Made by a program: the position numbers and the translations under genes
Shown: positions 117 to 22,936 of the stretch, piece by piece
Position numbering within the stretch: position 1 is the first letter of the stretch
How the letters are laid out: every line of letters begins with the position of its first letter
Notes under the pieces: generated by a model
Databases searched by the model: none
The model's input: only the letters and a program-made list of their open reading frames with translations
Told to the model about the DNA's origin: nothing
Origin: Ignavibacteria bacterium
GTDB lineage: Bacteria > Elusimicrobiota > Endomicrobiia > PHAN01
Direction of reading: 5' to 3'
DNA length: 22,936 bases
Assembly: GCA_041694835.1 (NCBI GenBank)
Contig: JBGFRZ010000068.1
Location: forward strand, 1-22,936

Positions 117-824
117 TTATATATAATTAAAATCAAATTTCCAAACTATGTCAAAAATGTTTTTTTCAAATAGATTATATAGTTCAACGGTTTCAGGAAC
201 TATTGTTTTAATTTTAAGGTTTTCTCCCAGTATTTTTTGAGAGAAGTTAACTTGTTCGGAATTTTGTACTCGGTTTAATATCAGTGAAATCTCGTTTATT
301 TTTAATTTTAATTTTTTTGCGGTTTCCTTAATATGTAAAGCGGTTCTTAAACTGACGTGCTCTGGTGTAGAGACTATGAAAAGTTCGTCAATATTATCCG
401 TCGTTCTTCTTGAGAGATGTTCAAGCCCCGCTTCATTGTCAATTATGGTTGAAACATATTTTGCCGATAATTTTGACAGCGACGTTCTTAAGAGTTCATT
501 TACGAAACAATAGCAACCGGGACCCTCGGGTTTACCCATTACCAATAAATCAAAATCCTTATTTTCAGAAATGACTTCATTAATTTTTAATTCTAAGAAA
601 TCCGTTTTTGAAAACCCCGCAGGTAGCTTGTCGCTCTTTAAGTCATCCCTGATATCAGAAATGCTATTTTGATATTTCGCTCCAAGATAGTAGCAGAGAT
701 TTGAATTGGGGTCAGCATCTATAGCAAGAACCGGTTTTTTATTTTTTTCAATCAAGTATCTAACAAGAAGAGCGGTAATAGTAGTTTTCCCCACGCCTCC
801 TTTGCCTGCTGTTGCAATTCTCAT
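117..824 (-). CDS. acsF: CooC/AcsF-type nickel-insertion ATPase (ACS maturation)
   Basis: Deviant Walker A GKGGVGKTT, DADPN, GCYC metal motif, DNEAGLEHLSRRT. Lies directly after acsC-RACo, as acsF does in the Carboxydothermus-type acs cluster. Confidence 0.88.
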   Translation of the reverse strand: MRIATAGKGGVGKTTITALLVRYLIEKNKKPVLAIDADPNSNLCYYLGAKYQNSISDIRDDLKSDKLPAGFSKTDFLELKINEVISENKDFDLLVMGKPEGPGCYCFVNELLRTSLSKLSAKYVSTIIDNEAGLEHLSRRTTDNIDELFIVSTPEHVSLRTALHIKETAKKLKLKINEISLILNRVQNSEQVNFSQKILGENLKIKTIVPETVELYNLFEKNIFDIVWKFDFNYI

Positions 825-6830: not shown

Positions 6831-9581
6831 TTAATTATTTGTGCGGCGGAGCGCTACCGGGCAAACCTTTAACTCTGGCATTTTGGAGACGGGGTCAAGT
6901 ACTGCGTGATTCATAAGTGCGTTCGTTGGCGATTCGGCAAAATGAAAACTCATTGAGACAACGCCAGGAAGAACATTTTCTGAAACTTGCAACTTAACCC
7001 TGATTTCACCGCGGCGCGAGACAACTTTTACAAAATCTCCGTCGGAAAGCCCGAGTTTTTCGGCGTCTGATGGGTTTATTTCAAGATGTTCCTCCGGGCT
7101 GATTTTATTAATACCATCAACCTTTCTTGTAAAACTCCCCGTGTGATAATGATAGAGCAACCTCTCTGTTGTAAGTATTAACGGATAATCATCGTCGGGC
7201 AATTCCGTAGATGGTTTATACGAAACCTTCATAAAGAGTCCTTTCCCGCGGGTGAATTTTTCCCTATGGAGAATATCTGTCCCGGGATGATTTTCGTCGG
7301 GACACGGCCATTTAAGTGTTTTTTCACTTAAGCGTTTGTATGAAATCCCGCCGTAAATGGGAGTTAACTTTGCGATCTCGTCCATTATTCCCGACGGATT
7401 CTGAAAATCAAATCCCCCTTCAATTCCCTCTTTGTAAAAGGGGGATACAGTGGGATTTTCCTCTTTTTGTAAAGAGAGATGGCGGCGGATTTTCAATATT
7501 TCTTTTGCCAGTTCGCAGACGATCAGCCAATCGGACCTTGATTCACCGAGCGGCTTTATCGCTTTATTTACAAGTTGAACCCTTCTCTCAGTATTAGTGT
7601 ATGTTCCGTCTTTTTCGGCAAAACTGCATGACGGAAGAACGAACGCGGCGAGTTTTGCCGTTTCAGTCAAAAACATATCCTGAACGACGAGAAATTCTAA
7701 TTCCGTCAAAGAACACTCGGAGTGTTTTAAACACGGTGCGCTTAAAATTGGATTTGCGCCCACGATATACATCGCCTTTACTTTACGGACATATGCTTCC
7801 TTAAACATTTCAGTCAATGTTAACCCGGGTTTTGGGTTCAGATTTGTCTGATAAAATTTTTCAAATTTCTCTCTTACGGATGCATCGTCTATTTTTTGAT
7901 AACCAGGGTAGACGCCGGGCAGACAACCCATATCGCAGGCGCCCTGCACATTGTTTTGTCCGCGCAAGGGGTTTAATCCCGTAGATGGTTTACCGATATT
8001 CCCCGTAAGAAGGGCCAGATTTGAAATTACAAAAACATTGTCCGTCCCATGAGTATGTTGCGTTATACCCATGCCGTAGAGAATTGTGGCGGGTTTTTGG
8101 GTTGCATATATTCTTGATGTTTTTATTATTAACTCTTTTCCGACGCCTGTAATTTTTTCTACATCTTCTAAACTGATATTACTCAAATGAGTAATATATT
8201 CGTCGTAATTCTCGCATCTTTCGCGAATAAATTTTTCATCCTGTAGATTTTCGTCTACAATAACTTTCGCAATACCATTAAGTAATGCAACATCAGTTCC
8301 GGGTTTATGGTGTAATGAGAGATAAGCGAATCGGCACAATTCAATTTTTTTAGGATTGATGACTATTAGTTTGGCGCCATGAGCAACTGCTTTTTTGATT
8401 TTAAGACCTATCACGGGGTGAGTGGCTGTAGAGTTTGAGCCGATAGAAAGAATCGTCTTTGCATCGGCGATCTCAGAAATTGAGTTCGTCATCGCCCCCG
8501 AACCAAGCGTCTGTGCCAAACCGGCAACAGATGGAGCGTGACAGAGACGGGCGCAGTGGTCAATGTTGTTTGTCTTTAAGACCGTCCGGGCAAATTTTTG
8601 TATGATATAGTCATCTTCATTAGTGCATTTTGCCGACGATATAACGGCGATTTCATCACCTTGATATTTAGCAAACTTTTCGGCAATTACACTCAATGCT
8701 TCTTCCCATGAAATTTCCTTAAAACTTCCGTCGGGTTGTCTTGCAAGTGGCGATGTAATCCTGTCTTTATGATGCACAAATTCTTTTATGCCGAATCTTC
8801 CTTTTACGCATAACTGTCCTTTATTTGCGGGTCCGTCGATATCCGGCGCAATTCTTACGATTTTTTCATTTTTTATTTCCAGTTTTATGGAACATCCAAC
8901 ACCACAATAAGGACATATTGTTGTCACAACTTTATCAGGATTTAATGATTGGCGAAAATCCTTTTCTAATATCGCTCCCGTCGGACAAATGTCTACACAG
9001 GCACCGCAGAATTCACAGTTGGAATTTTCCAGTTTTTTAGAAAAGGATGTGCATGGTATTGTTTTAATTCCGCGAAAAGCAAAATCAACCGCATTGTTTT
9101 TTCTTATTTCATTGCAAACACGAACACATCTTCCGCAAAGAATACACAGATTATAATCACGGTTAAAAAACGGCTCGTCATTATAAACAAGAATATCTTT
9201 TTCTATGAAAGGCAGAGTCAACCTTTCAACCCCCAAATAAGCGGCAATCGTCTGTAATTCACATCTTAAATTTTTCGCACAAGTAGTGCATGACTTATTA
9301 TGCTGGCTTAAAATCAGTTCAAATATTTGACATCGCAAATTCTGAAGCAACCCTGTGTTTGTTCTGACCACCATACCGTCTTCAACATATGTGGTGCATG
9401 TCGTTGGAAATCCCTTCATACCGTCAATTTCAGCGATACAAAGTCGGCAGGCGCCGTGAGGTGCAAGTTGAGAGTAATAGCAGAGCGAAGGAATATAAAC
9501 ACCATTTTGTTTTGCCGCTTCAAAAACGGTTGTTTTATTTTCAAGTTCTATTTGTTTACCGTCAATAATAATTCTTTTCAT
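6831..9581 (-). CDS. fdhF: Mo/W-bisPGD formate dehydrogenase alpha subunit with NuoG/HydA-like N-terminal FeS domains (Cys type)
   Basis: [2Fe-2S] C...GACRLC...C, HxxxCxxCxxxxxC, two CxxCxxCxxxC motifs, CPYCGVGC...CVKG, active site CARLCHAPS, RGQNNVQG, C-terminal molydopterin dinucleotide-binding domain. Confidence 0.92.
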   Translation of the reverse strand: MKRIIIDGKQIELENKTTVFEAAKQNGVYIPSLCYYSQLAPHGACRLCIAEIDGMKGFPTTCTTYVEDGMVVRTNTGLLQNLRCQIFELILSQHNKSCTTCAKNLRCELQTIAAYLGVERLTLPFIEKDILVYNDEPFFNRDYNLCILCGRCVRVCNEIRKNNAVDFAFRGIKTIPCTSFSKKLENSNCEFCGACVDICPTGAILEKDFRQSLNPDKVVTTICPYCGVGCSIKLEIKNEKIVRIAPDIDGPANKGQLCVKGRFGIKEFVHHKDRITSPLARQPDGSFKEISWEEALSVIAEKFAKYQGDEIAVISSAKCTNEDDYIIQKFARTVLKTNNIDHCARLCHAPSVAGLAQTLGSGAMTNSISEIADAKTILSIGSNSTATHPVIGLKIKKAVAHGAKLIVINPKKIELCRFAYLSLHHKPGTDVALLNGIAKVIVDENLQDEKFIRERCENYDEYITHLSNISLEDVEKITGVGKELIIKTSRIYATQKPATILYGMGITQHTHGTDNVFVISNLALLTGNIGKPSTGLNPLRGQNNVQGACDMGCLPGVYPGYQKIDDASVREKFEKFYQTNLNPKPGLTLTEMFKEAYVRKVKAMYIVGANPILSAPCLKHSECSLTELEFLVVQDMFLTETAKLAAFVLPSCSFAEKDGTYTNTERRVQLVNKAIKPLGESRSDWLIVCELAKEILKIRRHLSLQKEENPTVSPFYKEGIEGGFDFQNPSGIMDEIAKLTPIYGGISYKRLSEKTLKWPCPDENHPGTDILHREKFTRGKGLFMKVSYKPSTELPDDDYPLILTTERLLYHYHTGSFTRKVDGINKISPEEHLEINPSDAEKLGLSDGDFVKVVSRRGEIRVKLQVSENVLPGVVSMSFHFAESPTNALMNHAVLDPVSKMPELKVCPVALRRTNN
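7410..7493. repeat. Palindromic element inserted in frame in fdhA
   Basis: AAATCCCCCTT...TCCCTCTTTGTAAAAGGGGGA...GGGATTTT followed by CCTCTTTTTGTAAAGAGAG...GGATTTT; encodes KIRRHLSLQKEENPTVSPFYKEGIEGGF. Confidence 0.7.
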
Positions 9582-11518
9582 CTTAATTTTTGGGAACCCC
9601 GGAACTTGTCACAATGACCATCGGGGTGGCTTATTTCCACGGCGGCGAATTTACAGAGAGTAAAACATATCCCGCACTTGATGCATTTTTCATAGATTAT
9701 ACTGTGAGCCTTTTTTGGTTCGCCTTTAATTGCTTCGGAAGGACAACTTTTGAAACACAAATGACAGCCGTTGCATTTATCGGACAATATCTCGTATGTT
9801 ATAAGTGCCTTACAGACACCTGCTGGACATTTTTTGTTTTTTATATGACTTTCATATTCGTCGTAAAAATACTTTATCGTCGTTAAGACGGGGTTGGTCG
9901 CCGTTTTGCCAAGTCCACATAGTGCTGTTTTCTGGATCATTTCAGCAAGTTCCTGTAATTTTATTAAATCATTGCTTTCCGCCAAACCACCGGTTATTTT
10001 TTCAAGAATACCAAGCATCTGTTTTGTCCCTGTACGACAGGGCACGCATTTGCCGCATGACTCTTTCTGAGTAAAATCCAAAAAGTAACGAGCCATATCA
10101 ACCATGCAGGTGTCTTCATCAAGTACCACCATTCCGCCTGAACCCATCATCGAGCCAGCGGCAGTAAGAGAATCAAAATCAATAGGTGTGTCCAGCAAAC
10201 TTGATGGAAGACATCCCCCTGAGGGCCCGCCGGTCTGCACCGCCTTAAAGGTTTTACCGTCGGGAATCCCGCCGCCGAGAACAAAAATGATTTCGCGAAG
10301 AGTAATTCCCATAGGCACTTCTATCAAGCCGCAGTTTGCAATTTTCCCCGTCAGAGAAAAAATCGCCGTCCCCTTGCTTTTTTCAGTGCCACGGCTTGCG
10401 AACCAATCTGCTCCTCTGTTGATGAGCCATCGGATGTTGGCAAAGGTTTTTACATTGTTGAGAAGTGTTGGTTTGCCCCATAACCCGGACTCTGCGGGAT
10501 ACGGCGGGCGAAATTTGGGCATCCCTCTTTTTCCTTCTATAGACATTATAAGAGCTGTCTCCTCCCCACAGACGAATGCTCCCGCCCCTTGAAAAATTTC
10601 TATGTCAAAATCAAAATTTTTACCCAAAATATTTTTGCCGAGAAATCCCTTTTCTCTTGCTTGAGATATAGCGATTTGCAGACGCTTCACCGCCAGTGGA
10701 TACTCTGCCCGAACATAAATATAACCTTGTTTGGCTCCGACGGCATAGCCAGCGATGATGAGACCTTCCAATACCGAGTGAGGGTCACCTTCTAAAACTG
10801 AACGGTCCTGGAATGCTCCGGGGTCGCCTTCATCGGCATTGCAAATTACAAAAGTTGAGAGATGAGAGGTGAGAGGTGAGAGGTCAGAGGTCAGAGGTGA
10901 GAGGTGAGAGATGAGAGATGAGAGGTGAGTTTTTTCTCTGTCCCCCGTTCTCTGTTCTCTAAACTCTAAACTTGCTTTTCGGCATGCTTCCCATTTTTGT
11001 CCCGTGGGAAAACCGGCTCCGCCAAGGCCCCGCAATCCCGAACGCTTTACCTCGCTAATAACCTGTTCCGACGACATTTCAAGAAGAACCTTGCGCAGCG
11101 CATCATAACCGCCGACGACGATGTAGTCGTTTATTTCTTCAGGGTCGATATAGCCGCAGTTTTTTAGAACGGTGCGTTGCTGCTTGCTATAAAAAGCAAT
11201 GTCTTGGTGATGAGATATTGGTTTGCCGCTATCAGGGGCGCGATAAAATAGCCGCTCCACCAGCTGACCCTGCGGCAGGAATGACTGAGCGATATCTGTT
11301 ACATCCGCGACCTTGACTCTTGTATAAAAGATACCTTCGGGTTCGATGACCACAAGAGGACCCTGTTGACAAAAGCCATGGCAACCCGTGCGCTTTACAT
11401 AAACATTCTCACCTAAATCTAATCGCGTAATTTCTTCCCTTATCGCTGCATGAATTTGCCCGGCTCCCGCCGAAACGCAACCCGTCCCTTGACAAACGAG
11501 ACAAGTTTTAACTGGCAT
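9578..11518 (-). CDS. NuoF/HydB-like FMN/NAD(H)-binding subunit with thioredoxin-like [2Fe-2S] and C-terminal 2x[4Fe-4S]
   Basis: CQGTGC...GCHGFC, SGLRGLGGAGFPTG, NADEGDPGAF, GAGAFVCGEETAL, GGPSGG, ESCGKCVPCR, C-terminal CNGCHLC...CP and CIKCGIC; overlaps the fdhA start (ATGA). Confidence 0.92.
   Translation of the reverse strand: MPVKTCLVCQGTGCVSAGAGQIHAAIREEITRLDLGENVYVKRTGCHGFCQQGPLVVIEPEGIFYTRVKVADVTDIAQSFLPQGQLVERLFYRAPDSGKPISHHQDIAFYSKQQRTVLKNCGYIDPEEINDYIVVGGYDALRKVLLEMSSEQVISEVKRSGLRGLGGAGFPTGQKWEACRKASLEFREQRTGDREKTHLSSLISHLSPLTSDLSPLTSHLSTFVICNADEGDPGAFQDRSVLEGDPHSVLEGLIIAGYAVGAKQGYIYVRAEYPLAVKRLQIAISQAREKGFLGKNILGKNFDFDIEIFQGAGAFVCGEETALIMSIEGKRGMPKFRPPYPAESGLWGKPTLLNNVKTFANIRWLINRGADWFASRGTEKSKGTAIFSLTGKIANCGLIEVPMGITLREIIFVLGGGIPDGKTFKAVQTGGPSGGCLPSSLLDTPIDFDSLTAAGSMMGSGGMVVLDEDTCMVDMARYFLDFTQKESCGKCVPCRTGTKQMLGILEKITGGLAESNDLIKLQELAEMIQKTALCGLGKTATNPVLTTIKYFYDEYESHIKNKKCPAGVCKALITYEILSDKCNGCHLCFKSCPSEAIKGEPKKAHSIIYEKCIKCGICFTLCKFAAVEISHPDGHCDKFRGSQKLR
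10856..10969. repeat. Two opposed heptamer arrays in frame in nuoF/hydB
   Basis: Ten units T(G/C)AGAG(G/A) at 10856-10925, then five pyrimidine-rich units TCTCTGT/CCCCCGT/TCTCTGT/TCTCTAA/ACTCTAA at 10935-10969. Confidence 0.9.
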
Positions 11519-11546
11519 ATTGTGCCTCTTTTATTCGCTTCGCTCA

Positions 11547-11567
11547 CCCCCCAATGAATTTGGGGGG
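11547..11567. repeat. Small palindromic repeat CCCCCCAA-TGAAT-TTGGGGGG
   Basis: Same family as ACCCCCGAATAAATTCGGGGGCT at 12556-12578; lies in the 55-bp nuoE-nuoF gap. Confidence 0.7.
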
Positions 11568-11573
11568 CTATAA

Positions 11574-12044
11574 CTATTCGCTATTTGTTATTTGCTGTTT
11601 TTTGCGGGATAGCAATCCCGCCGCTACATTAGGAGTCAATCTGCCATGGACATCTTTGTTAATTGTTATGCACGGCGCCAGTCCACAACAACCGATACAG
11701 GCAACAGAACTCAGTGTGTATTCCAAATCCCGCGTCGTCTCACCTTCTTTGATTCCAAGAACTTTTTCCAGTTCCCCGAGTATTCGCGGGGCACCTTTCA
11801 CATGACAAGCCGTTCCTCTACATACCGCTATCTGTTTCTTTCCAAGCGGAACAAAACGGAACTGCGTATAAAACGATGCGATACCAAAAACCTCACTTTC
11901 TGTTATTCCACAAAATTCGGCAACTTTTTTCATCGCATCTTCCGGGAGATAGCCAAAGTCCAACTGGACTTTCTGTAAAATCGGAATTACTTTAGCTCTT
12001 TTTCCGCTGTACGATGAAAAAATATTCATTAGACGCTTTTTCAT
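11574..12044 (-). CDS. NuoE/HydC-like [2Fe-2S] subunit
   Basis: IPILQKVQ..FGYLP, ASFYTQF, CRGTACHVKG, CIGCCGLAP; 156 aa. Confidence 0.93.
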   Translation of the reverse strand: MKKRLMNIFSSYSGKRAKVIPILQKVQLDFGYLPEDAMKKVAEFCGITESEVFGIASFYTQFRFVPLGKKQIAVCRGTACHVKGAPRILGELEKVLGIKEGETTRDLEYTLSSVACIGCCGLAPCITINKDVHGRLTPNVAAGLLSRKKQQITNSE

Positions 12045-12649: not shown

Positions 12650-14572
12650 TCAAACGGCCGTTTTAAGTCCGAATTTTCCCGGCTCATATTTTTTAAGTTT
12701 AAGATTTTCTCTCGCTCCATCAATATATTTAATCGCTAATTCGAGAATTTTCTTCGGGTCGGATTCGAAATGAAGTGCTCCCGAAAATTTTTCAAGCCAA
12801 CCGTCGGTCATAATTTTTGTAACTTCTTTGCTCGCAGAAACGGGGGAATCAACACCGAAAATAACAGGCACCCCTGATGCTGCAAAATAGCATCCAATAG
12901 CGACTGCTTTTTCGCTCATCCATTCGGGAGCGATTCCAACCGCCGGCATTCCTGCTATTTCGTCGGACAAACCGCCTTCCTGTGCCATTCTGGTTGCGAT
13001 AGTAAGAATTCTTGAATTGTCTACGCAGGCGCCAAGATGAAGGATGGGTGGAATACCGATTGCCTCGCAAACCTCCCTGAGACCTGAAGCGGCGTTTTCA
13101 AGAGCCATCTCGGGCGTAAGATACCCCGCAACGCCGCAAGCCGCCGAGCCACATCCCGTCGAAACAATAAGGACATCGTTTTTGATTAACTCTGTGGCGA
13201 TAAATCGGTGGATTGCCGTCGCTTCCACTCTTGGATTGTCGCAACCTGCAAGCCCGACTACGCCTCTGATGCGGCCAGAAATAATTGCGTCGTTAAGCGG
13301 TCTGAAAGAACCGCGATATTTTCCGCCCAGCATATACTCTATGTATTCTTCCGAAAATCCCGCTATCAGAGGTGATTTTTTTGCGGCGGGGGCGGCGGAT
13401 TTTTTTCTGTCTGGATAGTTGTCTATAGCGGTGCGGATTATTTTTTTAGCGACTTCTACTGCATGATGTTCATTAAATTCAATGTGAATCGCGCCTTTGA
13501 TTTTTGCCTTCGGCGATGTCGTAATAATCTGTGTGTGGAATTTTTTGGAGAGTTCAACAATAATCGGCATTATACACTGAACATCGACGACGAACGCATC
13601 CACTAGTCCCGTCATAATGGCAAGTTCCTGATTTGTAAAGCCACCCGCCGTCGGAATTCCGTGGCGCATAAGAACTTCGTTGGCGGTGCAGCACATTCCG
13701 GCCAAATTGATGCCTTTGGCGCCTTTTGTTCTAGCGTACTCCAACAATTCTTTGTCCGACGATACCATGACTATGGTCTCAGCGAGCGTCGGCTCATGTC
13801 CGTGAACTACAAGATTGACTTCGTCTTCTTTAAAAATTCCGAAACTCGCTTCCGCTCTTAAAGGATGCGGCGTTCCAAAAAGTATGTCGGTTATATCGGT
13901 GGAAATCATACACCCGCCCCACCCGTCGGCGAGAGCGGTCTTGAGTCCGTGGAGCAAAAGATGCTCGGGGTCGTGGTCGACTCCAATTGATGTTCTATGC
14001 ATCGCTTCAGCAACTTCTCTGTCAATTCCTCTCGGAACAACGCCCCATTTTCTCCAACGTTCTTGAGTTTTTTTAGGGGCGCGGCTTATATAGTTTAATT
14101 CGCCCTTTTGCCGTCCGAAATCGTCGATAAATTTCAAAGCGACTTCTCGCGCGATTTCATTCGTGGTTTGTCCGTCTATTTTTACATTTAGAATTTGGGC
14201 GACTTTACGCAGTTTTGATATATCCGCTATCTTAAAATCTTTGACTTCGCCGTCTGCAACCGCAAGAAGCAGAAGCGCCATATCGCGAGCATGGTCGGAG
14301 TGCGCGGCAGTCCCGGCCGCTATCATCCTTACTATGTTTCTTGCTGCGACGGTCGCAAGGTTTGCTCCACAAACACCTCTCGCTTCTTCTTCGGCGTTTT
14401 TACCAACTAACCGGCACGGTCCCATGTGGCAATGTTTGCAGCATGCCCCGACGGCGCCAATCGGACATGGTTTCATTTTTTCGGCGCGATCAAAACATGT
14501 CTCAAAGTTTTGCGATTCAGCCCACTCAAGTATTTTTACACTCGAAGTATCGGCAGGTTTCATTTTTACCAT
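12650..14572 (-). CDS. cooS: Anaerobic Ni-Fe carbon monoxide dehydrogenase catalytic subunit (CooS/AcsA)
   Basis: D/B cluster CPIGAVGACCKHCHMGPC...C; C-cluster ligands HGHEP, CCTANE, DVQC, GCDN, TGCG, GACVDN; WMSEKA; SD AGGAGGAG at 14575-14582. Confidence 0.96.
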   Translation of the reverse strand: MVKMKPADTSSVKILEWAESQNFETCFDRAEKMKPCPIGAVGACCKHCHMGPCRLVGKNAEEEARGVCGANLATVAARNIVRMIAAGTAAHSDHARDMALLLLAVADGEVKDFKIADISKLRKVAQILNVKIDGQTTNEIAREVALKFIDDFGRQKGELNYISRAPKKTQERWRKWGVVPRGIDREVAEAMHRTSIGVDHDPEHLLLHGLKTALADGWGGCMISTDITDILFGTPHPLRAEASFGIFKEDEVNLVVHGHEPTLAETIVMVSSDKELLEYARTKGAKGINLAGMCCTANEVLMRHGIPTAGGFTNQELAIMTGLVDAFVVDVQCIMPIIVELSKKFHTQIITTSPKAKIKGAIHIEFNEHHAVEVAKKIIRTAIDNYPDRKKSAAPAAKKSPLIAGFSEEYIEYMLGGKYRGSFRPLNDAIISGRIRGVVGLAGCDNPRVEATAIHRFIATELIKNDVLIVSTGCGSAACGVAGYLTPEMALENAASGLREVCEAIGIPPILHLGACVDNSRILTIATRMAQEGGLSDEIAGMPAVGIAPEWMSEKAVAIGCYFAASGVPVIFGVDSPVSASKEVTKIMTDGWLEKFSGALHFESDPKKILELAIKYIDGARENLKLKKYEPGKFGLKTAV

Positions 14573-14643: not shown

Positions 14644-15384
14644 TCATGGTTGCGCCAATGTTTTTTTCACATCGCGGAAAAATTTCGTTTCTTTCAGCGG
14701 AATTTTCATCTGCTCAAATGCGTTGAGTTTTTCGTCAAATTTTAGTCGAAATTCCGCCTCCGCGCCCACACCGCTTTCTATAAAGACAATATCCTCACTG
14801 CAACTTAATTTGTTTGCCACGACGCCAACCGATGGAATCGCCAATTCTTTTGCAAGTTGCATAACTCTCTTTGCCGTCTGAACACTCTTTGCCGTCGGTT
14901 CGACGATAATATAAAGTTTATCTATTGACTTTGCCGTGCCGCGAGTTAAGTGCTCAATACCAGCAGGCATATCTATTATAACTTTTTCGCCGCTTTTAAT
15001 CAAAAGATGGGCAAGCAGCGATTTTAAAAATGTGTTTTCGGAACAATAACAACCCGAGTCGGCTTTTTTGAGCGCCCCCAAAACAAGAAGACTCAGATTG
15101 TCGCTTTTAAGTGAGTATTTTTCCGGTATATCCGAAACTTCGGGGTTCAGTTTGTAAAACCCTTTTCCGTCGGATTCCATGCGCTCGTCGATCAACCCTT
15201 TCATTTGAATTAAAGGCACAATTTTATTGAGAGATTGCGCATCAAAACCGGCTGTAAGTCCAAGATTCCCGTCGGGATCAGCATCGATGAGATATACACC
15301 GCCGCTGCCTGACAAAATAATGCCCATCGACGCCGCAAAGAGCGTCTTGCCCGAGCCGCCTTTTCCACTAACTGCGACTTTCAT
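14644..15384 (-). CDS. cooC: CooC nickel-insertion ATPase for CODH
   Basis: GKGGSGKT, DADPD, SGCYC, DMPAGIEHLTRGT; immediately upstream of cooS. Confidence 0.9.
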   Translation of the reverse strand: MKVAVSGKGGSGKTLFAASMGIILSGSGGVYLIDADPDGNLGLTAGFDAQSLNKIVPLIQMKGLIDERMESDGKGFYKLNPEVSDIPEKYSLKSDNLSLLVLGALKKADSGCYCSENTFLKSLLAHLLIKSGEKVIIDMPAGIEHLTRGTAKSIDKLYIIVEPTAKSVQTAKRVMQLAKELAIPSVGVVANKLSCSEDIVFIESGVGAEAEFRLKFDEKLNAFEQMKIPLKETKFFRDVKKTLAQP

Positions 15385-16323
15385 AAAATTTATATCCTTC
15401 CACTTCTTCGCCGATATGGAGTTTGAATAAATTTAACAGATTTTTTATCAACAATATAGTGGTTACCGAACCGACTCCTCCCGGCACAGGGGTTATAAAG
15501 GATGCTTTTTGAGACACGGAATCATAATCAACATCTCCGACTAATTTTGTCTTTGGTTTTCCCGTTTTATCGTCAATAATCGCTGTCCCGTTGTCATCAA
15601 ATATCTTTATGCGATTTATTCCAACGTCAATGATAATTGAGTCATCTTTTACCATTTCACCATTGATTAATCCCGCTTTACCGACTGCGACAATGAGGAT
15701 ATCCGCTTTTTTTGTATGTCCAGAAAGATTATTAGTCGCTATATGACAGACAGTGGGGGTAACAGAATTTGTCAATGAAGATAATAGCATAAGCAAGACA
15801 GGTTTTCCCACGATTTCGCTATGTCCGACGATTACCGTTTCCCTGCCTTTTAAATCAACTTTTGTTTCTTTTAAGCATTCTATAACGGATAATGCCGTGC
15901 AGGGAGCGACTATCGGATTAATTTCAGAATAGACAAGTTTGCCAAGATTTTCAACGGTTACTCCTTCAATATCTTTTGCCGGTAGTATTTTATTTTGTAT
16001 TTTACGTGAGTTAATTTGAGGCGGTAGCGGAAGATTCAGCATTATGCCAGAAATATCCCCGTCGACATTTAATCCTTCGATTTTTTTAACCAATTCGGAT
16101 TCGCTCACATCGTTTTTCAATTCAACTATTTCATAAGGTATTTTTAGTTCATCAAAGATTTTACATTGGTTTTTTATATAAACTTTTGTGGCGGGATTTT
16201 CTCCGACGATTATTGAAGCGACTTTCGGCATCTTTTCTGTTTTTTTCTTTAGCGATTCAATTTGACACTTTAATTCCTCCTTTATTTTTTGAGCGATTAA
16301 AACACCGTCAATGATTTGAGCAC

Positions 16324-16327
<4 letters not shown>
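15368..16327 (-). CDS. folD: Methylene-THF dehydrogenase (FolD family, probably monofunctional)
   Basis: IIDG, LPLP, PCTA, VGKP, IDVGIN, GDVD, TPVPGGVG; cyclohydrolase positions are substituted (YIKNQ, LNLPLP). Confidence 0.93.
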
Positions 16328-16902
<575 letters not shown>

Positions 16903-16963: not shown

Positions 16964-17010
16964 TGTAGTTGCCCCGCCTTAGTGGGACATTCCGACGACA
17001 AGCCCAATAA
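16964..17010. repeat. GTAG-type REP-like remnant fused to the HEPN gene 3' end
   Basis: TGTAGTTGCCCCGCCTTAGTGGGAC...GCCCAATAAA. Confidence 0.45.
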
Positions 17011-17197
17011 ACAGACCTATGACACCTTTGTGCGAAGACGCCTTCATACCTTTAGTGAGTAGCACCGCTTCAGCCATAAAAAACATCGCATAATAACACC
17101 TTGAAGCGCAAGAATCGTAATCTTCGGATTCAAAAGCAAGTTTCGCAGTTTCTAAAAATTTTTCTGTTTTTTTTATAAGGTCACCAATCTCATTCAT
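16979..17197 (-). pseudogene. Truncated HEPN-domain protein (toxin of an MNT-HEPN pair)
   Basis: Typical HEPN N-half (A..AFE..DY...ASRCYYAMF.MAEAVLL.KG....SHKGVI.LF) ends after about 63 aa, with a 9-aa tail read from repeat DNA; no C-terminal Rx4-6H region; ATGA overlap with the MNT gene. Confidence 0.75.
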
Positions 17198-17514
17198 ATT
17201 ACCATCCCCTCCTCTTTCACATTCAATATGAACGGGGATTTGTAATTTTTAAAAATGGTTTCTGGCACAGGTATAACTGAAATTAACTCTTGTTTCTCAA
17301 GAAGAATGTCAAAAATTATGTCACTCAAACTTTCTCTCACCTCAAACGGATTGAGGGAATCGTCAATTACAACTAAAACATCAATATCAGAATCTTTTGT
17401 AGCTTCACCCCTGACATAGGAACCATAAATAATAATCTCTTTTATTTTTTCCCCATACTCTTTTATCAAGTGTTTCTTTATTTGATTTACCAGTTGTTTT
17501 ACCTTACACTTCAT
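17194..17514 (-). CDS. Minimal nucleotidyltransferase (MNT) antitoxin
   Basis: IIIYGSYVRGEATKDSDIDVLVV (GSx10DxD), 106 aa, C-terminal NVKEEG. Confidence 0.88.
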   Translation of the reverse strand: MKCKVKQLVNQIKKHLIKEYGEKIKEIIIYGSYVRGEATKDSDIDVLVVIDDSLNPFEVRESLSDIIFDILLEKQELISVIPVPETIFKNYKSPFILNVKEEGMVI

Positions 17515-17700
17515 CTTTGTTTACCTTATTTAGCGGCATTCGGAATTTTGAACACCGAAAAAATTTTGCGAATCCAAAATTTGGGCAAGAGCGTCTCTTT
17601 AGCACATAAAACTTTTATGCCGTGTTATCACTATATTTCGTATGCTCTATCTTCACAAATAACCGAACATTTGTTCGGGGCGAACAGTTGTTCGATTATT

Positions 17701-18585
17701 TCATAATCCGGCGAGTTCGAGAACTTTCGGGACTTTACTATCCCATCCGAGCGGCATTATGTGAACTCCGTTACAAAATTGTTTCATTTCTCTAATCAGT
17801 TTTCCTGCAATTTCTACGCCCGTCTGCCCGGACTTTGTTTTTTCTTTGTCTTTTTTGAGTTCTTCTATGAAATTCTCCGTGACAAAAACACCAGCGACAT
17901 TTTCATTCATAAATTTCGCCATTCCGACTGATTTTAGTATGGTAATGCCGGCCATTACCGGAATTTCTCCAAAATTTTTTCTGACCGTCTCCATAAAGTT
18001 TGCGAATTTCTCCGGCTCAAAAACAAGTTGTGTCTGAAAAAATTCTGCGCCTGCCTTAATTTTTCTTTCCATCTTAAGAAGTTGCGGCTCAATCGGCTCG
18101 GCCGAGGGAGAAACAACCGCGCCGAGGCAAAATTTGGGTGGTTCTCCGTCGAGTTTATTCCCCGCCAAATCGTAGCCGCCCATAAGTTTTTTGACAGTGT
18201 GAATCAGAGAGACAGCGTCCAAATCAAATACCGGTTTTGCGTCTTTATGGTCGCCCAAAGTCGTGTGGTCGCCTGTCAAAAGAAGCAGATTTTCAATACC
18301 GAATGCCGCCGCGGAAAGAATGTCCGACTGCAAAGCGATTCTGTTTCTGTCACGGCAGACGATTTGAAACACTGGTTCAAGTCCGCGGTCTTTCAACATA
18401 TGACACGCGGCAAGCGACCCAAAACGCATCACTGATGATTGATTGTCTGTAACATTTATGGCGTCGACTTTTTCTTTCAGATAGGTTTCTGCTTCACAAA
18501 GACAATGCTCAATCTGCCATCCCTTAGGAGGACCGATTTCTGCTGTAATCACAAATTTTTTAGAAAATAAATCTTTTAAGAACAT
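17701..18585 (-). CDS. metF: Methylene-THF reductase catalytic subunit (MetVF type)
   Basis: TAEIGPPKG, NVTDNQ, CRDRNRIALQSD, LTGDH, FFQTQ, GVHIM. Confidence 0.95.
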   Translation of the reverse strand: MFLKDLFSKKFVITAEIGPPKGWQIEHCLCEAETYLKEKVDAINVTDNQSSVMRFGSLAACHMLKDRGLEPVFQIVCRDRNRIALQSDILSAAAFGIENLLLLTGDHTTLGDHKDAKPVFDLDAVSLIHTVKKLMGGYDLAGNKLDGEPPKFCLGAVVSPSAEPIEPQLLKMERKIKAGAEFFQTQLVFEPEKFANFMETVRKNFGEIPVMAGITILKSVGMAKFMNENVAGVFVTENFIEELKKDKEKTKSGQTGVEIAGKLIREMKQFCNGVHIMPLGWDSKVPKVLELAGL

Positions 18586-18620
18586 AAAATTTCTCCAATA
18601 GTGAAAGTTCTAAAGAGGCA

Positions 18621-18845
18621 TTTACCGCCCCGTATCAAGTAAGGAGTAAATTCTGGCGCGAAAGTTAGAAAACTTGTCCCCGAGATTTGCCGGCGGGGCG
18701 CACGAAAAAATAATCCCATTATATCCCACTTTAATAAATGGAAAAATCCCCCTGCTTCGCTTCCCCACACACCCCTGTTCACTTCCCCGATAAAATCGGG
18801 GACAGGCTTTGATAGAAGGGATAAATGGGGATTGAGGGTGATTTT
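18621..18845. repeat. Mosaic of palindromic elements between metV and metF
   Basis: TTTAC..CCCCGTATCAAG..GTAAA (18621-18650), split GCGCGAAAGTTAGAAA/CACGAAAAAA unit (18656-18710), TCCCCGATAAAATCGGGGA (18784-18802) inside an AATCCC...GATTTT element. Confidence 0.7.
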
Positions 18846-18869
18846 TACAAATGGACAGGACGTAGAATT

Positions 18870-19493
18870 TCACGAAGTCGTTTTGAACTCGTGCAGATGT
18901 ATTTTATTGCCATCATCATACACATTTCTCATTTTTTCTATTTTCTTAAATATCTTTTCCCATCCGCAGTCCATTTCTTTATTAACTTCGCACTTGCCGT
19001 TTTTTGCACCGCCGCAAGAACCATTTAACAAACTTTTTGAGCATGTTGTTATCGGACATATAGCGCCGGTATAATTCAGTTCACATTTTCCACATTGGGC
19101 GCAGTTGTGTTCCGAAGGTGTCAGCCCTTGAAATCCATGAATGTTCAACGTATCGCAGGCGGCAAAAATCTGTTTTTTGTTCGTTTGAATTTCTTCGCAA
19201 GCAAACAACTTTCCTGAAAAACTTTGCACCCCAACCCCGCAGGAGAAAACAAGAATGGCATCGGAGTTCTCAATTTCGTTTTTATATTTTCCGATATAAC
19301 TGTCTGAAAATTCGTCGTTGCACAGATAATCCAATAAAACAGAAGTGCTCTTGTTTTCCTGCAAAAATTTTTGAACTTCTTCAAACGGATATTTAACTTC
19401 TTTGCACCCGTAACATTGCACGACGAAAACATTTTTTTTATCTTTTAGAAATGTCAAAATTTCTTCTTTGGGTTTTAATTCTGTGATTAACAT
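18870..19493 (-). CDS. metV: Methylene-THF reductase FeS/Zn subunit MetV
   Basis: CYGC, LCN, SCGVGVQ, CAQCGKC...GAICPITTCSKSLLNGSCGGAKNGKCEV...CGW (MTHFR_C domain); upstream of metF. Confidence 0.9.
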   Translation of the reverse strand: MLITELKPKEEILTFLKDKKNVFVVQCYGCKEVKYPFEEVQKFLQENKSTSVLLDYLCNDEFSDSYIGKYKNEIENSDAILVFSCGVGVQSFSGKLFACEEIQTNKKQIFAACDTLNIHGFQGLTPSEHNCAQCGKCELNYTGAICPITTCSKSLLNGSCGGAKNGKCEVNKEMDCGWEKIFKKIEKMRNVYDDGNKIHLHEFKTTS

Positions 19494-19507
19494 AATCTAA
19501 TGTCGCA

Positions 19508-19679
19508 TCCCGATGCAACATCGGGACGAATAGAAGCACCGCCTCGCTCCGAAAGGAAATTGCGGAGTTTACCCCGCACCTTTTTAGAAACGAGATTGTT
19601 TCCCCCGTATTCACTGCGGGTTCACAATGACATAGAAAGGCGCGGGGCTCGGTGCTCCACAAGGGGAGATAATCTCCCC
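19508..19679. repeat. Nested palindromic elements between metV-rnfC and metV
   Basis: TCCCGATGCAACATCGGGA (19508-19526), AGCACCG/CGGTGCT (19535-19541, 19650-19656), CCCCGCACCTTT/AAAGGCGCGGGG (19572-19583, 19636-19647), GGGGAGATAATCTCCCC (19663-19679). Confidence 0.75.
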
Positions 19680-19732
19680 ATTACTTCGTCGCTCGCTTTT
19701 CGCCTCATCGGCGAACGCCCGCTGAACCCCTC

Positions 19733-21772
19733 TTAACAGGTATTTTTAACCATTTCCTTTTTTGTTTCTTTTATGGCATCCACCAACGATAATTTAGACG
19801 AGCAGATATACTCGCAACATCCGCACTCAATACAATTTAAAGCACTGTGTCTGCTTTTACTATTAAGCATTTCTATCCCGCTCTTTTCCAGTTCTTTCAG
19901 CCTCTCCGATGAGTTTTCTCTCTTATAGTACCAGTAATAAAGCGGATACAACTCCATCGGACAAACATCAACGCACCTTCCACACTTAATACAATTCCGT
20001 TCCGCATCAGCAATTATATCAAATTTGTTTAACGCAAGTAAGCATGTCGTCCCTTTTATGATAGGCGCTTCAATGTTTTTCTGAACCACACCCATCATCG
20101 GACCACCCATACGTAGGGAATAGGAAATAGGGGATAGGGGATAGGAAGTTGAGAAACAGTAGTTTATTATATCTTTAATGGGTGTGCCGATTTTAATCTC
20201 GTAATTTCCCGGTTTTGTACAATTTTCACCGGAAACAGTGATAATGCGTTTGATAAGCGGTATTCCATTTACAACGGCATTATAGACGGCAAAACTTGTC
20301 CCGACATTATTTACAACCACGCCGACTTCTGGCGGCAAACCGCCCAGGGGCACATCTCTGTTGAGAATTTTTTTGATTAGCATTCTTTCTGAACCCTGCG
20401 GATATTTTGTTTTCACTTCCGCAACTTCTATATTTGACTTCAGTCCAAGCATTGTTATTGTCTCTTTCATCACTTCAATCGCTTTTTGTTTATTGGATTC
20501 AATTGCAACAATACCTTTTTGTAGTTTTAAAATTTTGAGCAGTATTTGCATACCTACGATTATTTCCCGCGGACGCTCGACCATCAATCTGTCGTCAGCG
20601 GTAATATAAGGCTCACATTCGCATCCGTTGAGCAGCAATGTATCGATTGGTTTAGACGCTCTTAATTTAACATGTGTCGGGCATTGCGCCCCCCCGAGAC
20701 CCACGATGCCTTTGTCGTGTATAATTTTTCTCAAATGTTCTTCCGTTATGTTTTCGTAGTCGTCATTTGGTTTGACAGAATCATCTAATATATTTTTGCC
20801 ATCGGATTGAATCACAACCGACATAATGTCACCGTCAAGGACGGGATGCGGTCTTGGTTCCACCGCGATTACTTTCCCGCTAACACTTGAGTGTATTGGC
20901 GAGGACATAAATGATTTGGAGTCGCCTATTTTCTGACCTATTTTTACCACATCCCCCACTTTTACCAGCGATTCACATATATTGCCCAGATGTTGATGAA
21001 GTGGAATTACGACAATTTCTGTATCGGGAAATTTTTGTATTGGTTTGTCGGCTGTATGCTCCTTGTTTTCAAACGGATAAATACCGCCGTAAAAATTTTC
21101 TGCTCTTTTTGAGCGGATTGTATTATTATAGTCGTTGAACTGCTTGAAATCTATTTTGTTATATTTACGAAATTGAACGGGCTGACCCGCGAAATCAAAT
21201 TGTGTCCTTTTTAATCTTTTATATATTTTTTCCCAACCGCAGTCCTTATCCTTCGACACTTCACATTTGCCGTTTTTTGCACCGCCACAGGGACCATTGA
21301 GCAATTCCTTACTGCAATTTGTGAGCGGACAGATGCCCTGCGTTAAGGATAGAAAACATGTCGCACAGCCGGCGCATTTACTTTCGCACAATGAAATCCC
21401 GTGTTGACCCGATTGTTCCATTGTGTCTCCAACCGCATACACCGCGGTGGTTTCCAATAAATCTGCTACTGTCTGAACGCCGATTCCACAGGAGAGAACC
21501 AACAAGGCATCAGATTGACCAAGTAAAATTTTTGATTGCGCAATTCTTTTTTGCAGTTGTTCTTTATTGCATAAAAAATCTATCACATAAGAGCCCACAA
21601 CATTTTTATTCTGTTCTGCAAGAAATCCTCGCAAGACACCGCACTCATCTGGCACAAGAGCGACAAACTCTTCATAACATTTCCCGCAAATATAGATAAA
21701 AAGGGCATCATAATTGTTGACTAACCCGGCAATTTCTTCTCTGGGTTTCAACTTAAATTTTGTGTAATTCAT
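19733..21772 (-). CDS. Fusion protein: N-terminal MetV domain plus full RnfC/RsxC (NADH/FMN/2x[4Fe-4S]) domain
   Basis: About aa 1-200 MetV motifs (CGKC, LCN, SCGIGVQ, CAGCATC...CPLTNCSKELLNGPCGG...CGW); from about aa 225 RnfC motifs (GGIYP, PLHQHLG, IHSSVSG, GIVGLGGA, NGCECEPY, KYPQGSE, GGPMMG, CIKCGRC...CP, CIECGCC); no internal stop. Confidence 0.9.
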   Translation of the reverse strand: MNYTKFKLKPREEIAGLVNNYDALFIYICGKCYEEFVALVPDECGVLRGFLAEQNKNVVGSYVIDFLCNKEQLQKRIAQSKILLGQSDALLVLSCGIGVQTVADLLETTAVYAVGDTMEQSGQHGISLCESKCAGCATCFLSLTQGICPLTNCSKELLNGPCGGAKNGKCEVSKDKDCGWEKIYKRLKRTQFDFAGQPVQFRKYNKIDFKQFNDYNNTIRSKRAENFYGGIYPFENKEHTADKPIQKFPDTEIVVIPLHQHLGNICESLVKVGDVVKIGQKIGDSKSFMSSPIHSSVSGKVIAVEPRPHPVLDGDIMSVVIQSDGKNILDDSVKPNDDYENITEEHLRKIIHDKGIVGLGGAQCPTHVKLRASKPIDTLLLNGCECEPYITADDRLMVERPREIIVGMQILLKILKLQKGIVAIESNKQKAIEVMKETITMLGLKSNIEVAEVKTKYPQGSERMLIKKILNRDVPLGGLPPEVGVVVNNVGTSFAVYNAVVNGIPLIKRIITVSGENCTKPGNYEIKIGTPIKDIINYCFSTSYPLSPISYSLRMGGPMMGVVQKNIEAPIIKGTTCLLALNKFDIIADAERNCIKCGRCVDVCPMELYPLYYWYYKRENSSERLKELEKSGIEMLNSKSRHSALNCIECGCCEYICSSKLSLVDAIKETKKEMVKNTC
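20114..20148. repeat. Five TAGG(G/A)(G/A)(A/G) heptamers within the RnfC domain
   Basis: TAGGGAA TAGGAAA TAGGGGA TAGGGGA TAGGAAG; encodes SYPLSPISYSL just before MGGPMMG. Confidence 0.8.
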
Positions 21773-21834: not shown

Positions 21835-22816
21835 TTAAACCCAGTCTTTATTTCTTTTATTGAAGGTAATGCTTTCCTTATCAGGTTCGCTTAACATAAA
21901 CAATTCATGCAATTTTTTCCGGAGTACTTTCTTTGGAATAAGTTTTGTCTTGTATTCGGCAACAAGCGCCGGAGAAAGATTGCGGCTGAGAGCATATTCA
22001 ACAACTTCATCATCCTTTGATTTACACAGAATTATACCAACGCTCGGGTTTTCATCTATCTTCTTTATATCTCGGTCAATCGCCTCAAGATAGAAATTAA
22101 GTTTGCCAAGATACTCAGGTTTAAAATCATCTATTTTAAGTTCCAACATTACAAGACATCTTAATCCCCGATGGAAGAAAAGCAAATCAATAAAATAATC
22201 ATTCTTGCCTACCTGAATACGGTATTCCTGACCGATAAAGGTAAAATCCTTACCGAATTCAAGAATAAAATCTCTGAGGTTTGAAACAATGCTTTGCCGA
22301 AAGTCTTTTTCACTGTAAGTTTTTGGCAGGTTCAGAAAGTCCAGAACATAAGTATCCTTAAACGCGTTGGTTATGTCAGGATGTATTTGTGTCATTACTG
22401 GTGACACTTTTTTCTTTGAGAGCATTGCCCGTTCATAATAGCTACTGTCTATCTGCCGTTCAAGTTCACGTGAACTATATTTCTCCTTGATTACAAGTGA
22501 TATATAGAATTCACGTTCTTCTTTGGTCTTTGTTTTCGAAAGAATAAGCAAATGGTTAGTCCAGCTGATTTGTGTCAGCACTGCTGACACAATATCCTTC
22601 TGACGATAGGTCTCGTAAAACTGACGCATCCGATATAACCCACGACGGGTAAATCCCTTAAACTCAGGATGCTTTATTTGTATATAATCAGCAAGTTGGT
22701 CAACAACTGCATCTCCCCATTCTGCAGATGCAAGTTTCTTGCTGATATATTCACCGATATTCCAGTACAATTTTACTAATTCTGTATTGACATTTTTTAT
22801 AGCATTATATCGTGCC
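21835..22816 (-). pseudogene. DUF1016/YhcG PD-(D/E)XK nuclease family gene, 5' end interrupted by an IS
   Basis: VNTELVKLYWNIG, WGDAVV, ISWTNH, RELERQI, KDTYVLDFL, FIDLLFFHR..LELK, NPSVGIILC. The ORF-track N-terminus MSSFWGTV is read from the IS inverted repeat. Confidence 0.75.
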
Positions 22817-22936
22817 TGGACTGTACCCCAAAAACTGGACACAGATTTAGTATAATGGTTGACAAGAGACCCTAAAATAAGGAGGCTCTTGTATGGGTAC
22901 TTATAGAAAGTTCAGCAAAGAGCAGAAACGAGCGAT
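22817..22936 (+). mobile_element. Left end of an IS3-family insertion sequence (runs off the window)
   Basis: Begins TGGACTGTACCCCAAAAACTGGACACA (TG-start IRL resembling IS3/IS150-group ends), followed by SD AAGGAGG and a transposase-like ORF start. Confidence 0.8.
22893..22936 (+). CDS. IS3-family transposase OrfA N-terminus (partial)
   Basis: ATG at 22893 gives MGTYRKFSKEQKRA, matching the R(K/R)FSxExK start typical of HTH_Tnp_1 OrfA; SD AAGGAGG at 22879-22885. Confidence 0.7.
   Translation, partial: MGTYRKFSKEQKRA

Follow-up and report, generated by a model that had tools for sequence, protein, structure and literature searches.

The window analyzed here, a 22,936-nt stretch of contig JBGFRZ010000068.1 from the genome of an uncultured Elusimicrobiota bacterium (assembly GCA_041694835.1), carries three same-strand genes, rnfC2, metV, and metF, embedded in a Wood-Ljungdahl cluster (Table 1). 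The genes follow one another as rnfC2-metV-metF-(nucleotidyltransferase)-fchA-folD, fhs is found on a separate contig, and the remaining large open reading frames (ORFs) of the window are Wood-Ljungdahl genes or encode a nuclease or nucleotidyltransferase. Hdr and Mvh domains, which would characterize a type IV MetFV-HdrABC-MvhD enzyme, are missing from the proteins of the window. In the 97%-complete assembly, metF is the sole match to PF02219, and MetV domains occur only twice, both at the rnfC2-metV locus.

Table 1. Features of the rnfC2-metV-metF locus, with positions in the window
Feature	Position	Strand	Basis or remarks
rnfC2 (fusion)	19733..21772	-	ORF, Pfam domains, A. paludosum alignment, RnfC tree
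MetV-like N-domain of RnfC2, ~residues 1-200	21173..21772	-	End approximate; 12 invariant cysteines
Linker, ~residues 201-225	21098..21172	-	In frame, no stop; boundaries approximate
RnfC part, residues 226-679	19733..21097	-	RnfC_N, Complex1_51K FMN/NADH domain, SLBB, two CxxCxxCxxxC motifs
Spacer rnfC2/metV, 239 nt	19494..19732	-	GC-rich, dispersed repeat modules
metV, free small Fe-S subunit, 207 aa	18870..19493	-	DUF5981 only (Pfam)
Spacer metV/metF, 284 nt	18586..18869	-	23-nt core repeat recurring genome-wide
metF, catalytic flavoprotein subunit, 294 aa	17701..18585	-	PF02219; MTHFR only (Pfam)
fchA	16324..16902	-	Downstream of metF, same direction; methyl-branch gene (FTCD_C domain)
folD	15368..16327	-	Downstream, same direction; methyl-branch gene (THF_DHG_CYH domain)

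The original prediction, made from the sequence alone, had described an uninterrupted 679-aa ORF joining a MetV to an RnfC domain, followed by a separate metV and metF and by no rnfD, -G, -E, -A, or -B, and the ORF list and domain calls of the window bear out each of these points. The rnfC2 ORF begins with ATG and runs through both domains, with Pfam matches to DUF5981/MTHFR_C (residues 115-191), RnfC_N (226-326), Complex1_51K (351-497), SLBB (510-539), and 4Fe-4S dicluster domains (589-660). Across 16 aligned sequences, residues R223, G229, and G230 of the linker region are invariant, as are the eight ferredoxin cysteines and the GIVGxGGA motif of the Complex1_51K FMN/NADH domain (GIVGLGGA at 355-362 in this protein). 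The cofactor ligands are thus kept except at position 364, where the protein has Cys and at least 90% of the 16 sequences have Phe, so that this part of the FMN/NADH motif region reads GGAQCPT versus GGAxFPT. Of the 16 sequences, only the closest match also has the insert of 14 residues that lies between the ferredoxin motifs of this protein.

This architecture is that of a known enzyme. In published descriptions of Acetobacterium woodii, RnfC2 consists of an N-terminal MetV domain (~220 aa) and a C-terminal RnfC domain, and its gene lies directly upstream of separate metV and metF genes; (MetV-RnfC)/MetV/MetF is the characterized type III ("3S-type") layout of methylene-tetrahydrofolate (methylene-THF) reductases (MTHFRs) (PMC3315566, PMC8760232, PMC8515935). 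The A. woodii locus (Awo_c09290-09310) resembles that of the window in combining the MetV and RnfC domains in one RnfC2 polypeptide, in the metV and metF genes directly following rnfC2 on its strand, in adjoining the methyl-branch genes fchA and folD, and in the presence of another rnfC within a membrane Rnf operon. The two differ in several respects: the host here belongs to Elusimicrobiota and A. woodii to Bacillota; the A. woodii order is fhs1-fchA-folD-rnfC2-metV-metF, whereas here fchA and folD lie downstream and fhs is on another contig; the cluster here is broken by repeat-filled spacers and a nucleotidyltransferase gene; and the protein here has Cys at the near-invariant Phe364 position as well as the 14-residue insert in its ferredoxin domain. 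The premise that this layout departs from that of A. woodii is therefore wrong, and the suggestion that it might be new is refuted, the gene set having been described from A. woodii itself in the accounts cited above; earlier characterization of the layout was one of the grounds for refutation named with the original prediction. Type II MetVF enzymes (Clostridium ljungdahlii, Thermoanaerobacter kivui, and Eubacterium callanderi) draw on the same MetV and MetF families but are described as lacking RnfC2 and not using NADH (PMC8760232, PMC8515935).

Judged by orthology, the locus very probably encodes a type III methylene-THF reductase equivalent to RnfC2-MetV-MetF of A. woodii, with an electron path from NADH to MetF. 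Purification of the A. woodii enzyme is reported to have yielded a soluble trimer that was highly active as an NADH:methylene-THF oxidoreductase (PMC8760232; Bertsch et al. 2015 as cited there), and the counterpart here would presumably form the same trimer. If it works as the A. woodii enzyme does, NADH would be oxidized at the FMN site in the RnfC part of RnfC2, and electrons would move on through [4Fe-4S] clusters, probably first those in the ferredoxin domain of the RnfC part, next those of the MetV-like N-domain, and last those of free MetV. The clusters of free MetV would then reduce the flavin of MetF, and MetF would make methyl-THF from methylene-THF, a methyl-branch step of the Wood-Ljungdahl pathway. 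The earlier gene identifications, and the view of the RnfC part as a module for NADH input connected to MetV and MetF, are supported by this orthology.

The RnfC part of RnfC2 resembles the RnfC of membrane complexes. It shares RnfC_N, Complex1_51K, SLBB, and two [4Fe-4S] clusters with solved membrane RnfC chains (9eri_C, 7zc6_C, and 8ahx_C; aligned residues 226-675), matching 9eri_C, the RnfC chain of a solved Rnf complex, at an E value of 1e-108, and the protein passes the NCBIfam equivalog cut-off for RsxC. It differs from these chains in its 225-residue MetV-type extension and in lying outside an rnfCDGEAB operon. A complete apbE-rnfCDGEAB operon is present elsewhere in the genome (contig C24), and its RnfC1 is 44% identical to the RnfC part of RnfC2. 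In a tree of the RnfC domain only, 42 fusions and 37 plain RnfC proteins are set apart by one branch (SH-aLRT of 99), with the genome's own RnfC1 on the plain-RnfC side; an RnfC phylogeny and a search for a separate Rnf operon were among the checks proposed earlier. RnfC2 is a paralogue of RnfC, presumably soluble, and distinct from the membrane-complex RnfC encoded elsewhere: it neither lies in an rnfCDGEAB operon nor groups with plain RnfC.

These similarities bear on an alternative in which RnfC2 binds through its RnfC part to membrane-bound RnfDGEAB, displacing RnfC1, while the MetV-like domain carries MetF or MetVF, such that electrons travel between ferredoxin/Rnf and methylene-THF with no need of free NADH. 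The idea is in print, as model B of Poehlein 2012 (PMC3315566) and as a hypothesis revived in Oppinger 2021 (PMC8760232); a complete Rnf operon in the genome could supply the docking partner, and the RnfC part aligns along nearly the whole RnfC chains of solved membrane complexes. We nonetheless regard such docking as improbable, since the A. woodii enzyme is described as a soluble, NADH-active trimer without ferredoxin dependence (PMC8760232) and the RnfC2 lineage is separate from plain RnfC.

Slightly less probable still is a dual input, in which the fusion feeds in electrons from NADH, free MetV accepts those of ferredoxin, and a single MetF uses either source or takes part in bifurcation. 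That type II enzymes, which consist of MetVF only, accept electrons from reduced ferredoxin in vitro (PMC8760232, PMC8515935) and that A. woodii MetVF alone reduces methylene-THF with a reduced artificial dye (PMC8760232) would be consistent with this scheme. The reports on the complete A. woodii trimer, however, describe ferredoxin as neither stimulating the reaction nor being reduced, with very low ferredoxin-dependent activity (PMC8760232, PMC8515935), and thus lend no support to the second donor that had been proposed for free MetV. Free MetV is, moreover, a constant part of the operon (41 of 44 loci) and not an extra copy in the genome of the window. The favored reading remains the type III enzyme with NADH as its donor.

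The fusion is widespread. All 120 database matches listed contain PF12225 together with the RnfC domains at 97-100% coverage, and RnfC2 of Acetobacterium paludosum DSM 8237 can be aligned with the protein of the window in a single stretch, residues 2-668, at 46% identity; identity to the characterized family is only 45-50%. When named genomes were scanned with this protein alone, no relative emerged; an alignment-based scan gave a full-length match at 44 of the 80 loci kept. The fusion, metV, and metF lie on one strand at 41 of these 44, which answers the earlier suggestion that the fusion and its neighborhood be sought in other genomes, and the MetF of the window is 59-80% identical to the MetF proteins of other rnfC2-metV-metF loci. 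Apart from the contigs coming from a draft genome (89 contigs), nothing favors an assembly or frameshift artifact joining a metV to an rnfC, and this explanation is refuted because 41 independent loci of other genomes have a single open frame of 652-722 codons over both domains, linker residues are invariant across the 16 aligned sequences, and the fusion recurs in all 120 database proteins listed and in 15 other genomes of the phylum.

Within Elusimicrobiota, this enzyme type was detected in 16 of the 301 genomes sampled, including that of the window, and the fusion occurs in the window's genome and in six family codes. Many genomes of the phylum match through free MetV only, without the fusion, and may possess type II MetVF. 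The two genomes of the same family as that of the window have a canonical-looking MetF and are without MetV. As a separate observation, both AcsB and RnfC2 of the window are nearer to those of another class than to those of same-family genomes.

The N-terminal 215 residues of RnfC2 are 41% identical to free MetV (79 of 193 positions; E value of 4e-45), a figure equal to that given for A. woodii (PMC8515935). The two MetV-type domains have 12 cysteine columns in common, which in the N-domain are the invariant C29, C32, C68, C95, C133, C136, C139, C148, C153, C162, C170, and C178; free MetV has 13 invariant cysteines, among them C113, which is absent from the N-domain. Phylogenetically, N-domains and free MetVs are split with an SH-aLRT of 100, and the free MetV of the window groups with other free MetVs. 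The duplication is therefore old, and on the basis of this tree we rejected the idea that the N-domain arose by a recent, local doubling of metV.

Modeling of the N-domain against MetF plus MetV weakly supported a complex, with a score of 0.45 (0.02 for the best control), although a MetV paralogue may score on the MetV site of MetF by likeness alone; at least 86% of contacts agreed among runs, and the pLDDT of the partners was at least 78. In the calibration of this score, 58 of 80 solved complexes attained such a value, as did 2 of 110 mismatched pairs; of these, only 7 of the 80 solved complexes but both mismatches scored 0.60 or below. One speculative extension, which we think rather unlikely, is that the N-domain, an old and diverged MetV, may occupy a MetV-type site on MetF, that RnfC2 might act as a plug-in by which a MetVF core of the ferredoxin type becomes an enzyme of the NADH type, and that this module has apparently been exchanged among Elusimicrobiota lineages. 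Neither the fusion nor a MetV profile, used as queries against the PDB, brought up a structure of MetV or of RnfC2-MetVF; what the duplicated domain does is for this reason a question that concerns the enzyme family at large and not this one locus.

The spacers between the three genes are filled with repeats. The spacer between rnfC2 and metV has a GC content of 54% (versus 41% for the window) and an RNA fold z-score of -3.95, and its modules recur on four other contigs (C72, C31, C39, and C20). The spacer between metV and metF has a nonsignificant z-score of -1.79, and copies of its 23-nt core, exact or at least 95% identical, occur on some 20 other contigs. A search of the window against Rfam at gathering thresholds returned nothing, and the structured, GC-rich spacers are therefore not a known riboswitch or leader. 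We dropped the notion of an operon-specific regulatory RNA; the spacers are dispersed genomic repeats. Scans for promoters (15 promoter-like sites versus 14.1 expected) and terminators (12 terminator-like sites versus 5.6 expected, with several of these sites lying in the repeat spacers) were uninformative. In A. woodii, rnfC2 is reported to be cotranscribed with metV-metF (PMC3315566); here, because repeats fill the intervals of 239 and 284 nt between the genes, cotranscription is only assumed.

What appeared to be a new enzyme is, then, an ordinary RnfC2-MetV-MetF gene set in an acetogen-like, uncultured bacterium from a phylum other than that of A. woodii, and the occurrence of this enzyme type in Elusimicrobiota is mildly new. 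The database label "electron transport complex subunit RsxC" conceals both the MetV domain of RnfC2 and its probable role in methylene-THF reduction. How much ATP the acetogenesis pathway yields depends on the type of MTHFR, and an uncultured Elusimicrobiota genome that combines CODH/ACS, an Rnf complex, and what is, by orthology, an NADH-type MTHFR fits acetogenesis in the style of A. woodii.

The 679-aa fusion of MetV with RnfC (here RnfC2), with the separate metV (free MetV) and metF that follow it, has the same layout as the RnfC2-MetV-MetF methylene-THF reductase (MTHFR) of Acetobacterium woodii. In that organism, metV and metF are cotranscribed with the gene for RnfC2 (Awo_c09290), according to Poehlein et al. 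2012 (PMC3315566), and the enzyme of Bertsch et al. 2015, as summarized by Oppinger et al. (PMC8760232), contains RnfC2, MetF, and MetV at 1:1:1. The same summary describes a purified enzyme with 2 FMN, about 24 Fe, and six predicted [4Fe-4S] clusters, whose NADH-dependent reduction of methylene-THF proceeds at 248 U/mg, ferredoxin neither stimulating the reaction nor being reduced; "3S-type" is the name given to the complex by Yi et al. 2021 (PMC8515935). Because these three papers, in the passages that concern this enzyme, describe the same architecture, the contrast that the original prediction drew with A. woodii disappears, and its suggestion of novelty is refuted by this prior characterization and by how widely the identical layout is conserved.

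The observation behind that suggestion, a fused ORF beside separate metV and metF genes, is correct in every detail, from the ORFs and Pfam domains to the MetV/RnfC junction (21098-21172), where the reading frame is kept and stop-free. Fusion residues 7-191 are 41% identical to free MetV (E, 4e-45). Across 16 full-length RnfC2 sequences, the GIVGxGGA stretch (355-362), both ferredoxin motifs (C594 C597 C600 C604 and C647 C650 C653 C657), and twelve cysteines of the MetV-like N-terminal domain (N-domain) are invariant, and the same twelve columns are invariant in free MetVs. A thirteenth invariant cysteine of free MetV, C113 (16/16), occurs in 0/16 N-domains, which have Ser, Ala, Thr, or Gly, and it is a marker separating the two; position 44 is a cysteine in 13/16 N-domains and in no free MetV. 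The window fusion has Cys364, within GGAxFPT of the flavin/NADH domain, where at least 90% of relatives carry Phe, and 14 residues inserted between its ferredoxin motifs (about residues 620-640) are common only to this protein and its closest database hit.

Features of the window and Pfam domains of the MetV-RnfC protein
Feature	Position	Strand	Source
YhcG-type nuclease gene	21835-22842	-	
MetV-RnfC ORF, 679 aa	19733-21772	-	
DUF5981 (MetV, or "MTHFR C-terminal," domain)	residues 115-191		Pfam
RnfC_N	residues 226-326		Pfam
Complex1_51K	residues 351-497		Pfam
SLBB	residues 510-539		Pfam
4Fe-4S dicluster domains	residues 589-660		Pfam
metV, 207 aa	18870-19493	-	
metF, 294 aa	17701-18585	-	
Small nucleotidyltransferase gene	17194-17514	-	
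fchA	16324-16902	-	
folD	15368-16327	-	
cooC	14644-15384	-	
CODH	12650-14572	-	
NuoE-like gene	11574-12044	-	
NuoF-like gene	9578-11518	-	
Formate dehydrogenase alpha	6831-9581	-	
acsB	4253-6451	-	
Corrinoid Fe-S protein subunit	2657-3982	-	
RACo activase	821-2644	-	
Second cooC	117-824	-	

The domain-architecture and neighborhood search proposed with the original prediction recovered the fusion widely. When 7,997 candidates from a large protein database were scored (7,856 with E of ≤0.001), PF12225, PF13375, and PF01512 occurred together in 120/120 of the matches listed, at 97 to 100% query coverage and lengths of 648 to 823 aa; names among the matches listed include Elusimicrobia (64% identity), which is also the name of the best match, Firestonebacteria, Endomicrobiia, Blautia, and other Lachnospiraceae. 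An alignment-based scan of named genomes (578 relatives, 80 loci kept) yielded 44 full-length loci (L007-L050), matching the query from residue 1, 2, or 7, and 36 loci of plain RnfC (L051-L086), matching only from about residue 203-235. Among the sources of full-length loci are Acetobacterium paludosum DSM 8237, an Acetobacterium MAG, Sporobacter termitidis DSM 10068, Bilifractor porci, Marvinbryantia, many Blautia, one Elusimicrobia MAG, and one Aerophobetes MAG. The RnfC2 of A. paludosum and the window fusion are 46% identical in a single aligned segment, residues 2-668. The order fusion, free metV, metF on one strand holds in 41/44 full-length loci (L044 and L045 stop at a contig edge before metV/metF, and L050 is cut within the fusion, with metV-metF present), and a single open frame of 652 to 722 codons spans both domains in 41/41 complete loci. 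Just upstream of the fusion, fchA-folD is present in L026, L029, L033, and L035 (A. paludosum, an Acetobacterium MAG, and two Eubacteriaceae MAGs), an arrangement also reported for A. woodii.

One 823-aa database homologue (P0006) has a second MetV domain following the RnfC part, giving a single MetV-RnfC-MetV chain such as a fusion of rnfC2 to the downstream metV would produce; it is a candidate variant, possibly an artifact of sequencing or gene calling. A Lachnospiraceae locus (L016:961-2522) carries an extra metV-metF pair ~2.5 kb upstream of rnfC2-metV-metF, giving two MetVF sets in one neighborhood. The RnfC2 of a record titled Prevotella sp. (L015) sits on a very short branch within a tight Blautia/Lachnospiraceae group of the RnfC tree, which probably reflects mis-binning of the contig and not an occurrence of the enzyme in Bacteroidota.

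The separate rnfCDGEAB operon that the original prediction proposed to look for is present: the genome (1.9 Mb, 89 contigs, 97% complete) encodes a complete apbE-rnfC-rnfD-rnfG-rnfE-rnfA-rnfB operon on contig C24, whose RnfC is 44% identical to fusion residues 212-671. The RnfC phylogeny proposed with it (maximum likelihood, IQ-TREE quick search, RnfC part only, 79 rows, 431 columns) parts 42/42 fusions from 37/37 plain RnfC, the genome's own among the latter (SH-aLRT of 99), and places the window fusion with Aerophobetes and Elusimicrobia loci (97 and 96), sister to a Bacillota set that includes Acetobacterium. That the N-domain is a recent copy of the neighboring metV is rejected by a tree of 16 RnfC2 N-domains and 16 free MetVs, from genomes that differ except for the window's, in which the two kinds split with an SH-aLRT of 100, and by a mean identity of 39% between kinds, versus 56 to 58% within each. 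This split and identity gap argue for an ancient MetV duplication and fusion, probably of single origin. A third RnfC-like protein (434 aa; L006:4567-5871, contig C7) has a permuted domain order, Complex1_51K, SLBB, and Fer4 coming first and a partial RnfC_N lying at the C terminus; its best NCBIfam scores, RsxC (231 bits) and PrdC (221 bits), are both below the equivalog cutoffs.

By orthology, the functional reading first proposed, an NADH-input module wired to MetV/MetF, is broadly right, and the locus most likely serves NADH-dependent methylene-THF reduction. NADH would reduce FMN in the RnfC part of RnfC2, and the Fe-S clusters of RnfC2 and MetV would relay the electrons to the MetF flavin. 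A single MTHFR gene and just two MetV domains occur in the genome, all at this locus, so it encodes the pathway's reductase and not a spare copy; formyl-THF synthetase is encoded on contig C29. Complex prediction of the N-domain (residues 1-215) with MetF and free MetV gave weak support, scoring 0.45 (best control, 0.02), a score that does not settle the topology, as a MetV paralogue is expected to be modeled onto the MetV site of MetF anyway. That mark was reached by 58/80 solved complexes and 2/110 mismatched pairs, those at ≤0.60 comprising only 7 of the 80 solved complexes and both mismatches. Runs agreed on at least 86% of contacts, with partner pLDDT of at least 78, and replacing MetF lowered the score to 0.02, which hints that the modeled contact depends on MetF. 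A PDB search returned no MetV or RnfC2-MetVF structure (MetV profile best E, 0.72), and the fusion matched nothing there except RnfC chains from membrane Rnf complexes (residues 226-675).

The minus strand of the window encodes one long co-directional Wood-Ljungdahl gene cluster. Between cooS and acsB lies a trio (6831-12044) of NuoE-like, NuoF-like, and formate dehydrogenase alpha genes, the last passing the TIGR01591 cutoff (827 versus 666 bits), which suggests that the pathway starts with a soluble formate dehydrogenase linked to NAD(P)H and/or ferredoxin. Between metF and fchA, an MNT-type nucleotidyltransferase gene (106 aa) and a 72-aa ORF overlap by 4 nt (16979-17514); an NCBIfam search of the 72-aa ORF gave no match, its resemblance to a truncated HEPN partner being judged by eye, and the pair probably represents what is left of a toxin-antitoxin system, inserted into the cluster. 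The rnfC2-metV gap (239 nt, 19494-19732) and metV-metF gap (284 nt, 18586-18869) are much longer than those of Bacillota loci (about 5 nt and roughly 10 to 140 nt). Both, like 17515-17700, are assembled from short elements with copies on many other contigs, one 23-nt core on about 20, and the operon spacers are intergenic repeats spread through the genome and not specific to this operon. The first is GC-rich (54%) and hairpin-forming, folding better than shuffled sequence (z, -3.95), and the second does not (z, -1.79); an Rfam search of the window spacers gave no match.

Rnf-dependent acetogenesis has already been predicted for Elusimicrobia lineages VII-IX by Meheust et al. (bioRxiv 10.1101/765248), who, in the passages on this prediction, use metF (K00297) alone to score MTHFR. 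Our literature search, covering papers on the Wood-Ljungdahl pathway in Elusimicrobia and RnfC2 papers from 2022 onward in their main text, found none that assigns the RnfC2 type to this phylum. With residues 1-330, spanning the junction, as the query, a complete one-frame match of 651 to 707 aa was found in 16 of 301 Elusimicrobiota genomes (the window's own and 15 others, six family codes), and a match cut by contig ends was found in two more; many others have free MetV only, of about 215 aa. Two genomes of the window's own family, G061 and G125 (96% and 89% complete), gave no match to DUF5981, and their MetF scores 279 to 292 bits against the canonical MTHFR profile, a match twice as strong as the 130 to 136 bits in the window and two fusion-bearing genomes of another class; MTHFR type thus differs between genera of one family. 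Their AcsB is 60 to 61% identical to the window's, and that of the two other-class genomes is closer, at 66%. This pattern of AcsB and MetF across family and class suggests a departure from the species tree in the history of the reductase module and perhaps of the entire cluster.
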